IMG/VR virus record: IMGVR_UViG_2526164604_000021
Direction: 5' to 3' (one strand)
DNA from: a virus
Lineage: Duplodnaviria > Heunggongvirae > Uroviricota > Caudoviricetes
DNA length: 6,757 nt
Notes under the pieces: generated by a model
The model's input: the letters and a program-made list of their open reading frames with translations, nothing else
Told to the model about the DNA's origin: nothing
Databases searched by the model: none
Made by a program: the position numbers and the translations under genes
In this document: one piece after another, positions 3,424-4,850 of the stretch
Layout of the letters: each line of letters begins with the position of its first letter
Numbering within the stretch: the stretch's first letter is position 1

Positions 3424-4137
3424 TCACCCAAACGTCTCTTCAGGCCACTGACTAGCGATAACTTTCCCCACAACGGAACAACTCTCATTGCATGGGATCA
3501 TTGGGTATTGTGGGTTTAGTGGCTGTAGAAACACCTGACCGCTATCCCTGATCAGTTTCTTGAAGGTAAACTCATCACCACCAAGTCTGGCTATACAGAA
3601 ATCGCCTGGCTCAACAGCCTGCTCAGGGTCAACCAGAATTAACATCCCGTCAGGAAAGCTGGGCTTGGATCCTGTTGGTGCGGTCATGGAATTACCTTCA
3701 ACCTCAAGCCAGAATGCAGAGCCACTGGCTTTTTTGGTTGTGCTTACCCATTTCTCCGCATCGCCTTTGGTAAAGGTTCTAAGCTCAGGCGAGAACATCC
3801 CGGCCTGAACATGAGAAAAAACAGGGTACTCATACTCACTTCTAAGTGACGGCTGCATACTAACCGCTTCATACATCTCGTAGATTTCTCTGGCGATTGA
3901 AGGGCTAAATTCTTCAACGCTAACGTTGAGAATTTTTGCAAGCAATGCGGCGTTATAAGCATTTAATGCATTGATGCCATTAAATAAAGCACCAACGCCT
4001 GACTGCCCCATCCCCATCTTGTCTGCGACAGATTCCTGGGATAAGCCAAGTTCATTTTTCTTTTTTTCATAAATAGCTTTAAGGCGACGTGCGTCCTCAA
4101 GCTGCTCTTGTGTTAATGGTTTCTTTTTTGCGCTCAT
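3424..4137 (-). CDS. cI: Lambda-type cI repressor (237 aa), apparently intact
   Basis: Translation [54 protein letters not shown]... is near-identical to lambda cI as I recall it. It contains the HTH, the Ala-Gly autocleavage site (HVQAGMF) and the Ser/Lys dyad regions ([16 protein letters not shown]). The start codon abuts PRM with no leader. Confidence 0.97.
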
Positions 4138-4143
4138 ACGTTA

Positions 4144-4213
4144 AATCTATCACCGCAAGGGATAAATATCTAACACCGCGCGTGTTGACTACTTTACCTC
4201 TGGCGGTGATAAT
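4144..4213. promoter_or_regulatory. Right operator region: OR3 (4148..4164), OR2 (4171..4187), OR1 (4195..4211); PRM on minus strand (-10 TAGATT at 4144..4149, -35 TAGATA at 4167..4172); PR on plus strand (-35 TTGACT at 4185..4190, -10 GATAAT at 4208..4213)
   Basis: Operator 17-mers read directly: tatcaccgcaagggata, taacaccgcgcgtgttg, tacctctggcggtgata. The cro Shine-Dalgarno TAAGGAGG is at 4226..4233. Confidence 0.95.
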
Positions 4214-4237
4214 GGTTGCATGTACTAAGGAGGTTGT

Positions 4238-4438
4238 ATGGAACAACGCATAACCCTGAAAGATTATGCAATGCGCTTTGGGCAAACCAAGACAGCTAAA
4301 GATCTCGGCGTATATCAAAGCGCGATCAACAAGGCCATTCATGCAGGCCGAAAGATTTTTTTAACTATAAACGCTGATGGAAGCGTTTATGCGGAAGAGG
4401 TAAAGCCCTTCCCGAGTAACAAAAAAACAACAGCATAA
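4238..4438 (+). CDS. cro: Cro repressor (66 aa)
   Basis: Translation [66 protein letters not shown] matches lambda Cro as I recall it. A strong SD precedes it and it is driven by PR. Confidence 0.97.
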
Positions 4439-4445
4439 ATAACCC

Positions 4446-4477
4446 CGCTCTTACACATTCCAGCCCTGAAAAAGGGC
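4446..4477 (+). promoter_or_regulatory. nutR (boxA CGCTCTTA at 4446..4453; boxB hairpin GCCCTGAAAAAGGGC at 4463..4477)
   Basis: Read directly. boxB is a 5-bp stem with a GAAAA loop, in the lambda position between cro and cII. Confidence 0.75.
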
Positions 4478-4544
4478 ATCCAATTAAACCACACCTATGG
4501 TGTATGCATTTATTTGCATACATTCAATCAATTGTTATCTAAGG

Positions 4545-4579
4545 AAATACTTACATATGGTTCGTGCAAACAAACGCAA
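4545..4579 (-). promoter_or_regulatory. PRE (promoter for repressor establishment) with CII recognition repeats TTGC-N6-TTGC overlapping the cII start
   Basis: Minus strand reads TTGCGTTTGTTTGC (complement of 4566..4579), then 13 nt, then AAGTAT. This matches the lambda PRE architecture from established knowledge. Confidence 0.5.
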
Positions 4580-4850
4580 CGAGGCTCTACGAATCGAGAG
4601 TGCGTTGCTTAACAAAATCGCAATGCTTGGAACTGAGAAGACAGCGGAAGCTGTGGGAGTTGATAAGTCGCAGATCAGCAGGTGGAAGAGAGACTGGATT
4701 CCAAAGTTCTCAATGCTGCTTGCTGTTCTTGAATGGGGGGGCGTTGACGACGACATGGCTCGATTGGCGCGACAAGTTGCTGCGATTCTCACCAATAAAA
4801 AACGCCCGGCGGCAACCGAGCGTTCTGAACAAATCCAGATGGAGTTCTGA
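4557..4850 (+). CDS. cII: CII transcriptional activator (97 aa)
   Basis: Translation MVRANKRNEALRIESALLNKIAMLGTEKTAEAVGVDKSQISRWKRDWIPKFSML... The ATG at 4557 is preceded by AAGGA at 4542..4546. The ORF-track start at 4497 is an in-frame upstream extension lacking an RBS. Confidence 0.95.
   Translation: MVRANKRNEALRIESALLNKIAMLGTEKTAEAVGVDKSQISRWKRDWIPKFSMLLAVLEWGGVDDDMARLARQVAAILTNKKRPAATERSEQIQMEF

Follow-up and report, generated by a model that had tools for sequence, protein, structure and literature searches.

The conserved region at positions 3424-4850 of the window (the whole 6,757-nucleotide stretch of DNA analysed here) belongs to an element that has already been described: the lambdoid remnant integrated at thrW in Escherichia coli O157:H7, known as Sp1 in Sakai and CP-933H in EDL933. 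Its CI/Cro switch is undamaged, and published expression data from strains with the same core show it working: cI is on, PL and PR are off, and SOS derepresses them. Taken as a whole, this DNA is probably best explained as the Sp1/CP-933H immunity core with a functioning switch that has survived through youth and the order in which functions were lost, alongside an ORF166 that is decaying. The asymmetry between preserved immunity and broken lytic functions is itself known, since it was tabulated in 2009: Sp1 was scored as having a conserved repressor and Cro, with every remaining function either missing or defective, and its mitomycin-inducible early genes were said to be of "unknown significance". 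The feature found again here is an ordinary one. What our analysis adds is a set of corrections. OL is found at another position, ORF166 proves to be a pseudogene for which a series of deletion alleles exists, and the sequence cannot support a claim of selection.

The Sp1/CP-933H remnant and its broken genes

The remnant adjoins a tRNA-Thr gene beside proA, and the Sakai annotation names it "prophage Sp1, lambda-like", with CI, Cro, CII and pseudogenes of O and P. Both Sakai Sp1 and EDL933 CP-933H share with the window the thrW site, the N'-int' and P'-tail-fibre junctions and the O frameshift; their cI, OR and cro are identical to those of the window, and overall identity is 99.97% over 2949-6757 and 99.93% over 1-1393. 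They differ from it in lacking the IS, in having a 576-bp deletion in the NYN gene where the window has the IS and a 333-bp deletion, and in encoding Val62 in cII. Outside the IS/NYN interval, EDL933 and the window differ at two bases, and a base-by-base comparison of the window with four complete O157 genomes yielded only three SNPs in 5.2 kb. The combination of IS and 333-bp deletion was found in none of the complete RefSeq E. coli genomes in the collection.

The remnant is confined to a young clone, since the prophage that O55:H7 CB9615 carries at thrW is unrelated. In O157:H7 F1273 the thrW site is taken by another prophage, which is full-length and differs in its immunity region. Three O157:H7-type genomes (F1273, 117 and OkiPb01687) gave only a partial match to cI. 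CB9615 was considered as the ancestral state and rejected, because the integrase of its thrW prophage shows only 68% identity and the repressor is a different one.

This element is not a viable, inducible lambdoid prophage: int and P are truncated, O carries a frameshift, there is no xis, and of the late genes there is only a tail-fibre/invertase segment, which annotations of other strains place downstream of the window. The lesions in N, O and P reported by a sequence-only reading of this DNA are real. N stops after 20 codons at a deletion junction (919/920) that fuses it to the truncated integrase gene, with alignments to lambda and ev099 both breaking at 919; N' keeps the arginine-rich boxB-binding motif of lambda N, and the 107-aa full-length protein, with its regions for binding NusA and RNA polymerase, is missing. 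Of the N/nut antitermination system, the nut sites are therefore kept without an N partner in cis. The int' frame (ORF 1-975) has acquired a new ATG from out-of-frame N sequence; over window positions 1-919 it matches the full-length F1273 integrase at 99.6% identity, and it is annotated as incomplete in L001 and L004. The 23-bp duplication in O repeats iteron 3 and its spacer, giving five iterons, while a deletion after about 21 codons joins P' to the tail-fibre region (5867-6757), which thereby lies downstream of PR.

ORF166, on the same strand as cI, had been proposed as a possible object of retention, which is contradicted by its condition. What remains is the 5' part of a gene for a 285-aa NYN-domain protein (PF01936) that occupies the rex position: at codon 152 of 285 the frame is shifted by a 1-bp deletion at ~2839, and the 333-bp deletion abutting the IS removes the 3' end. 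Pfam places the NYN domain at residues 158-205 of the ev099 homologue (285 aa) and gives no match for ORF166. The frameshift is common to the window and ERL04-3476, the two versions in which that part of the gene survives. O157 strains show three or more distinct deletion alleles of the gene, the endpoint nearest cI still being ~480 bp away from it. ORF166 is a dead gene that is decaying rather than retained. We do not claim a defence-system role for the NYN protein: PADLOC matches were weak for the intact ev099 protein (HEC-09, 2e-4; NYN, 1.4e-3) and nil for ORF166. The IS transposase is co-oriented with cI, and the 3-bp target duplication (TTA) of the IS has been lost on the right side.

Elements of the switch

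The sequence-only reading had also placed every element of an intact and canonical switch within 3424-4850. This is correct for cI, OR1-OR3, PRM/PR, cro, nutR, PRE and an open cII, with 97-98% identity to lambda over ~2.4 kb, but not for OL/PL and nutL, which sit outside that interval, 2.9 kb away across the IS1203/IS629 copy and the pseudogene (Table 1). Neither is every element canonical: OR2, the PR spacer and cII (V62G) have each changed, as have OL1 and the boxA of nutL (TGCTCTTA, a variant shared with ev099), by one base each.

Table 1. Positions of phage-derived features and the insertion sequence in the window.
Feature	Position	Strand	Remarks
int'	1-921	minus	thrW-type tyrosine integrase without ~67 N-terminal codons; Pfam Phage_integrase
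N'	866-979	minus	lambda N codons 1-20, then 17 unrelated codons
nutL	boxB 1137-1151, boxA 1160-1167	minus	boxB as in lambda; boxA with one change
PL	-10 1207-1212, -35 1230-1235	minus	alignment to annotated lambda
OL1	1209-1225	minus	C>T at position 10, common to ev099
OL2	1233-1249	minus	identical to lambda
OL3	1253-1269	minus	identical to lambda
IS1203/IS629 (IS3 family)	1396-2705	minus	1310 bp, terminal inverted repeats intact
NYN-domain pseudogene	2706-3296	minus	ORF166 is 2796-3296; comparison with ev099 gene and ERL04-3476
cI	3424-4137	minus	237 aa, intact; alignment and Pfam
PRM	-10 4144-4149, -35 4167-4172		part of OR region 4144-4213; hexamers as in lambda
OR3	4148-4164		identical to lambda
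OR2	4171-4187		T>C at central base 4179 (T9C)
PR	-35 4185-4190, -10 4208-4213		hexamers as in lambda; spacer T>C at 4192
OR1	4195-4211		identical to lambda
cro	4238-4438	plus	DNA and protein identical to lambda cro; directly downstream of PR
nutR	boxA 4446-4453, boxB 4463-4477	plus	both identical to lambda
cII	4557-4850	plus	open frame; V62G from T>G at 4741
PRE cII-binding repeats (TTGC-N6-TTGC)	4566-4579	minus	unchanged
O'	4883-5805	plus	replication initiator, frameshifted by 23-bp duplication 5275-5297
P'	5802-5866	plus	first ~21 codons of P; lambda/ev099 alignment ends at 5865

The OR region has three 17-bp operators between the divergent PRM and PR, and all four promoter hexamers are unchanged. 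A scan for operator half-sites returned seven matches against 1.04 expected, a number reached in 0 of 200 shuffles, and OL3 and OR3 are 2878 bp apart here versus 2300 bp in lambda. The OR2 change converts TAACACCGT to TAACACCGC, which is how the half-site reads in the other five operators. Neither the C at 4179 nor the C at 4192 in the PR spacer occurs in any of the 36 phage records holding this OR, a diverse set that includes HK97, HK544, mEp234, SfI, ev099 and ev243; GenBank records of the wild lambda-immunity phages of Degnan et al. 2007 are also among the matches. Together with a change at 4191 in TW14359, three lineage-specific transitions fall within 14 bp of OR2-OR1, none of them seen in a phage record. 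The cII substitution V62G was seen, in the base-by-base comparison with four complete O157 genomes, in the window and in ERL04-3476 alone. Rfam recognized only the frameshift pseudoknot of the IS (ALIL, 2254-2370) in the window and matched neither nut nor any other lambda RNA to a family.

Both domains of a lambda-type repressor were identified in cI (HTH_3, 2.6e-11; Peptidase_S24, 9.8e-29), and the motifs for self-cleavage are present: the Ala-Gly site (AGMF at residue 112), the GNSM serine and the TFKKL lysine. The protein matches lambda CI at 233 of 237 residues (T3A, K71N, R129K and D139G, counting Met1) and ev099 CI at 237 of 237, the DNA of the latter being identical base for base; all differences from lambda therefore predate the remnant. 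A dN/dS check that had been suggested for cI could be computed against lambda (15 synonymous and 5 nonsynonymous codon differences) but was of no use within O157, where cI does not vary and the ratio is undefined.

Lambda itself (NC_001416, 35.3-39.6 kb) has the same order of elements, N-nutL-PL/OL...cI-PRM/OR/PR-cro-nutR-cII-O-P, with the same operator spacing, an identical Cro and 97-98% identity from cI to P'. It differs in carrying rexA-rexB where a now dead NYN-domain gene is found here, in having unbroken N, O and P and the genes between N and int that are deleted here, and in the four CI residues, OR2 T9C and the PR spacer. Radostvirus ev099 (NC_049953) shares the cI gene without a difference, the OL1 and nutL variants and a NYN gene in the rex position, with 98.8% identity over 2706-5865; its genome is complete at 47 kb, its N, NYN, O and P genes are unbroken, and it has neither of the two OR changes nor the cII change, the iteron duplication or the IS. 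The literature searched gave nothing relevant on plaque formation by ev099, whose viability rests on this complete annotated genome record.

Activity of the switch

Published expression data agree with a switch that is normally closed and opens upon DNA damage, though they come from strains other than the window's own, which lack the IS, have wild-type cII and are 99.97% identical to it over the core. In EDL933 RNA-seq, where conditions are mostly single samples, cI was transcribed in all 11 conditions (RPKM 164-2646), while cII, O', P', the tail-fibre genes and int' stayed at RPKM 0-37 in ten. In the presence of trimethoprim-sulfamethoxazole, those PL/PR genes rose by logFC 4.5-8.1, with RPKM up to 487. 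Overall, the derepressed PL and PR units in published transcriptomes rise 60-250-fold and are read far beyond the switch. Similarly, the residual early genes of Sp1 showed "clear induction" on Sakai mitomycin C arrays without DNA amplification, Table 1 of the 2009 Sakai paper scores Sp1 as positive for both repressor and antirepressor, and in PA20 RNA-seq 8 of 14 Sp1 genes responded to high SMX-TM, with no excision. All features of a lambda-type CI/Cro switch that were checked are thus present: CI, a tripartite OR, a tripartite OL, cro after PR and SOS-derepressed expression.

We infer that CI is the agent of this repression. Transcription from PRM would produce the cI message and read through into the dead NYN gene, and CI dimers on OR1/OR2 and OL1/OL2 would keep PR and PL off. 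Upon DNA damage, activated RecA would prompt CI to cleave itself at the Ala-Gly site, allowing PL and PR to fire: PL would yield the 37-aa N' peptide and truncated integrase, and PR would yield Cro, CII, broken O and P and, via the P-to-tail-fibre deletion, the tail-fibre genes. Without replication, excision or killing, the cell would survive and could re-repress the element. Given a working switch, the host is likely to be immune to phages with lambda operators; the literature searched contained no immunity test on the Sp1/CP-933H element.

A repressor or operators already inactivated by substitution (CI T3A, K71N, R129K and D139G; OR2 T9C; OL1 C10T) would be an extremely improbable reading of this region. 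Four amino acid differences from lambda CI and the operator changes are what speak for it, but it is already contradicted: the complete phage genome ev099 carries the very same cI allele and OL1 variant, and EDL933, with the same cI, OR and OL, keeps PL and PR tightly off and SOS-inducible.

Persistence of the switch

The survival of the switch seems best explained by youth and order of loss, with immunity a by-product that needs no ongoing selection. An asymmetry of this kind is expected without selection for immunity because loss of the repressor is lethal while killing functions remain. The argument that the asymmetry implies selection was not borne out, as the neighbouring pseudogene is equally unchanged: lineage-specific substitutions number 0 in the 714 bp of cI and 0 in the 718 bp of dead NYN gene and spacer. 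With cI and a dead gene equally unchanged, and three SNPs in 5.2 kb, the sequence is unable to distinguish selection from youth. Purifying selection would likewise leave cI and cro without substitutions, which keeps selection among the candidate explanations.

Alternatively, natural selection may have kept the module to protect O157 from superinfection by lambda-immunity phages, though we consider this unlikely. The switch is functional, and homoimmune phages appear common enough to exert pressure, since at least 80% of the cI-OR-cro segment is present in 617 of 5426 complete E. coli genomes (~11%), in addition to the 36 diverse phage records with this OR. Furthermore, the lesions and the three NYN deletion alleles all stop short of cI, and none of the seven lineage-specific substitutions in 2419 bp falls in cI or cro. 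That distribution reaches only P=0.07, however, and is matched by the pseudogene, while a nearest deletion endpoint ~480 bp away reveals no constraint on endpoints; the partial cI matches in F1273, 117 and OkiPb01687, the other prophage at thrW in F1273 and the unrelated one of CB9615 also argue against this view. It is quite unlikely, in turn, that cI has been kept because derepression is costly, whether through CII (toxic when overproduced), Cro, an O N-terminal fragment bound to five iterons, or read-through from PR and PL into tail-fibre, invertase and thrW-side genes. The scale and reach of derepression would fit such a cost, as would the reduced growth of O157 and EPEC upon CII induction, though that CII was from an Stx2 phage. 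Against a cost, V62G might already weaken CII, and distal expression from PR should be limited because tR1 is intact and N is absent.

The genotype also invites comparison with the classical N- O-/P- defective lambda lysogens, which were used to study immunity and anti-immunity. These share an intact cI-OR-cro, the lack of antitermination, replication and killing, and a survivable derepression; they differ in being laboratory constructs, usually with temperature-sensitive cI857, whereas the element here is natural and has a RecA-cleavable wild-type CI. Anti-immunity in such lysogens was reportedly described by Eisen et al. and by Neubauer and Calef, both in 1970. We regard as very doubtful the idea that the remnant is a natural N- O- P- lambda lysogen in which an SOS pulse leaves surviving cells in a heritable, Cro-dominated anti-immune state, with the OR2-OR1 transitions (4179, 4191 and 4192) representing the retuning of a domesticated switch and with cross-talk, via a nearly identical C-terminal domain (last 92 residues identical), to a second resident prophage repressor of 231 aa as a further possibility. 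Such a state would be a two-state epigenetic marker altering phage immunity and the expression of genes fused to PL and PR. Recruitment of the switch as a host regulator or heritable toggle, in which SOS could flip cells of this N-, O-, P- and kil-less element into a stable anti-immune state that alters int', tail-fibre/invertase genes or other targets, is very improbable. The match to the classical genotype, the intact cro, OR and PRM, and the clustered transitions absent from phage records are consistent with a toggle, but the clustering test was post hoc, and intact cII and PRE would favour re-repression. The switch is also not known to have host targets, and among the O-island regulators covered in a 2024 review none comes from this element. 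If either selection or a toggle were true, the remnant would be a natural case of repressor domestication in a strain whose resident prophages control the expression of Shiga toxin and virulence genes.

Survival of a repressor beyond its phage, silencing residual genes, is likewise seen in the K-12 cryptic prophages (RacR of Rac, DicA of Qin and CohE of e14), although those repressors belong to other families and immunities. RacR is retained because its neighbouring genes are toxic; unlike RacR, the Sp1 repressor is not known to have a toxic neighbour. A Rac transcription factor is reported to control both phage and host operons. A Cro protein linked to virulence in EHEC was considered as a possible product of the Sp1 element and rejected: it is z1448 of the Stx2 phage.

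Identity and anatomy of the remnant

The window is the known prophage remnant Sp1 of Escherichia coli O157:H7 Sakai in a variant arrangement, set apart by an insertion sequence (IS) with a 333-bp deletion and by cII V62G, and the finding as a whole is already known. Megablast against complete E. coli genomes showed that the window adjoins thrW (tRNA-Thr), downstream of proA, in the O157:H7 lineage. The Sakai annotation of this region reads "prophage Sp1, lambda-like phage" and lists CI, Cro and CII with O and P pseudogenes; EDL933, in which the element is named CP-933H, matches Sakai exactly across the region. 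The window's exact arrangement was absent from every complete genome in the collection searched. Its anatomy, deduced by aligning it with lambda (NC_001416) and phage ev099 (NC_049953), is tabulated below. The region is not a viable prophage, and the lesions in N, O and P proposed by the sequence-only reading were borne out, N and P being cut short and O frameshifted. Rfam detected the frameshift pseudoknot of the IS.

Features of the Sp1/CP-933H remnant, in window coordinates
Feature	Position	Strand	Description
int'	1-921		thrW-type integrase without about 67 N-terminal codons
N' ORF	866-979	minus	N codons 1-20 plus 17 new residues
int'/N deletion junction	919/920		integrase fused to codon 20 of N
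nutL	1137-1167		
PL with OL1-OL3	1207-1269		
IS1203/IS629	1396-2705		complete, 1310 bp
NYN-domain gene remains	2706-3296		
cI	3424-4137		
OR3, OR2, OR1 with PRM and PR	4144-4213		
cro	4238-4438		
nutR	4446-4477		
PRE and cII	4557-4850		
O', duplication	5275-5297		frameshift via 23-bp duplication (one iteron plus spacer)
P'	ends 5866		first ~21 codons, joined to tail-fibre region

The immunity switch and its expression

Identity to lambda is 97-98% across about 2.4 kb, and the operator half-site TATCACCGC has seven matches versus 1.04 expected (0/200 shuffles reach seven); the switch elements at 3424-4850 are far beyond chance. cI carries the Pfam domains HTH_3 and Peptidase_S24 and retains its cleavage-site and catalytic motifs. 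Four of its residues differ from the lambda protein (T3A, K71N, R129K and D139G), and in DNA it is identical to its counterpart in ev099, whose 47-kb phage genome is complete. The sequence-only reading had placed all switch elements within 3424-4850 and called each intact and canonical. The placement holds for cI, OR, cro, nutR and cII, whereas OL, PL and nutL lie at 1137-1269, 2.9 kb from OR and past the IS and a pseudogene (OL3-OR3 distance: 2878 bp in the window, 2300 bp in lambda, 1322 bp in Sakai). Similarly, there is no departure from lambda in cro, nutR or the PRE repeats, but the central base of OR2 (4179, T>C), the PR spacer (4192, T>C), cII (V62G; T>G at 4741), OL1 and the nutL boxA are altered, the last two by one change each that ev099 shares. 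Among the sequences compared, V62G is confined to the window and ERL04-3476; the residue is valine in Sakai, EDL933, TW14359, lambda and ev099.

With its 4179 change, a shift towards the consensus half-site, OR2 fits the form TATCACCGC/…ACCGC common to the other five operators, and the operator should therefore be no weaker. A 14-bp stretch of OR2-OR1 and the PR spacer contains three lineage-specific transitions (4179, 4192 and, in TW14359, 4191), none of them present in the 36 phage records with this OR (0/36), in contrast to cI and cro (915 bp), which have no lineage-specific transitions. This excess is apparent and was noticed post hoc. The most unusual reading, an improbable one, is that this natural N- O- P- switch acts as a heritable toggle, or has been retuned.

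In sequence, the region has everything that defines a lambda immunity switch, and published data extend this to expression. EDL933 served as a stand-in; outside the IS/NYN interval, only two bases separate it from the window. In its published strand-specific RNA-seq (11 conditions), cI (Z0309) had RPKM of 164-2646 throughout and the NYN remnant (Z0308) 17-125, while cII (Z0310), O' (Z0311, Z0312), P' (Z0313), the tail-fibre genes (Z0314-Z0316) and int' (Z0307) stayed at 0-37 in 10 of the 11. Under trimethoprim-sulfamethoxazole, Z0307 and Z0310-Z0316 rose (logFC 4.5-8.1; 6.4 for Z0307) and cI was flat (logFC 0.5). Both the PR and PL sides thus respond, the behaviour expected of a CI-controlled promoter pair whose repressor is RecA-cleavable. 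Asadulghani et al. (2009) rated Sakai Sp1 as positive for repressor and antirepressor, defective in integration and replication, and lacking all else; mitomycin C gave "clear induction" of many residual Sp1 early genes, Sp1 DNA was not amplified, and the significance of the induction was left "unknown". In PA20, high SMX-TM elicits a response from 8/14 Sp1 genes and no excision; the table column that lists them also contains 87/93 Stx2-prophage genes. These EDL933, Sakai and PA20 data support a functional switch. What is established for lambda predicts immunity to lambda-operator phages. Located downstream of the cI transcript yet upstream of PL, the IS should leave both units undisturbed in the window's own strain. 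The Cro reported as a regulator of EHEC type III secretion was rejected as an Sp1 product; it is that of the Stx2 phage.

Selection or youth

The sequence-only reading attributed the survival of the switch, and possibly of ORF166 (2796-3296, minus strand), to selection, for which the sequence gives no evidence. Polarised with lambda and ev099 as references over 3424-5865, seven substitutions belong to the window lineage (OR 2, cII 1, O' 4) and none falls in cI and cro, where 2.65 are expected under uniformity (P(0)=0.07). The decisive internal control is the certainly dead NYN pseudogene: with its spacer (718 bp) it has no substitutions versus ev099, the 1-bp deletion being the sole change, and selection retaining immunity is thus unsupported. 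Base by base, the window and four complete O157 genomes differ by 3 SNPs in the shared 5.2 kb; the element's youth simply leaves substitution patterns uninformative.

Selection for immunity may possibly keep the module, a hypothesis rather than a result: 617 of 5426 complete genomes hold the cI-OR-cro segment over at least 80% of its length, and this OR is common to 36 phage records. The asymmetry between an intact switch and broken lytic functions also has a simple non-adaptive reading, in which repressor loss is barred while it controls kil, replication or lysis, so that the repressor tends to outlast the rest. The lambda-type module is not universal: thrW is occupied in F1273 (O157:H7) by a full-length prophage with a different immunity region and in O55:H7 CB9615 by an unrelated prophage.

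ORF166 corresponds to codons 1-152 of a 285-aa NYN-domain gene, intact in ev099, whose frame is broken by the 1-bp deletion at about 2839 (14 out-of-frame codons follow) and whose 3' end was lost to the 333-bp deletion abutting the IS. A Pfam search hit NYN in the protein of ev099 and nothing in ORF166, which is not a NYN-domain protein because its reading frame is broken. Its retention by selection is refuted, this single pseudogene holding at least three different deletion alleles among strains (L001 8706-9038, L004 4206-4212 and L006 3466 in the comparison loci). ERL04-3476 has the IS with a 3-bp target duplication (TTA) and a full-length, frameshifted gene; in the window, the 333 bp are missing flush with the right end of the IS (2706), and the target duplication is also gone; in TW14359, IS+TTATG remains and 569 bp are missing; Sakai and EDL933, without the IS, are short of 576 bp from its insertion site onward. 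The series resembles the outcome of IS-associated deletion and imprecise IS excision, and this variation shows that decay adjoining cI is still under way.

Flanking genes and other resident prophages

What N' retains is precisely residues 1-20, the arginine-rich peptide that binds boxB, and once derepressed it could bind boxB RNA without antiterminating; the region has no functional N/nut system because N is truncated. The truncated integrase ORF (1-975, minus strand), directly downstream of PL, has acquired an in-frame ATG by reading N-region sequence in a different frame. The IS1203 transposase genes (1396-2705) are co-oriented with cI. After crossing what is left of the NYN gene, the PRM transcript runs into the transposase-proximal end of the IS, and transposase could therefore be expressed by read-through from cI. 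The origin inside O (5229-5338) has five iterons versus four, and both this and the broken O frame are due to the 23-bp duplication. Deletion from P to the tail-fibre region has placed a tail-fibre/tail-fibre-assembly/pinE invertase segment under PR (5867-6757 and downstream; L001 12446-15263); the EDL933 tail-fibre genes Z0314-Z0316 are SOS-induced.

The F1273 thrW prophage (L005 13202-27800) is lambdoid and apparently complete, with an XRE-type immunity region and an integrase 99.6% identical to int'; either it replaced Sp1 or it is an alternative occupant with the same integrase. A second F1273 repressor (231 aa; L009 3499-4194) belongs to another resident prophage. It differs from Sp1/lambda CI in its DNA-binding domain but is almost the same in its C-terminal domain, where the last 92 residues are identical. 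Mixed dimers or cooperative contacts between it and Sp1 CI are conceivable. Further O157 genomes likewise show a second partial match.
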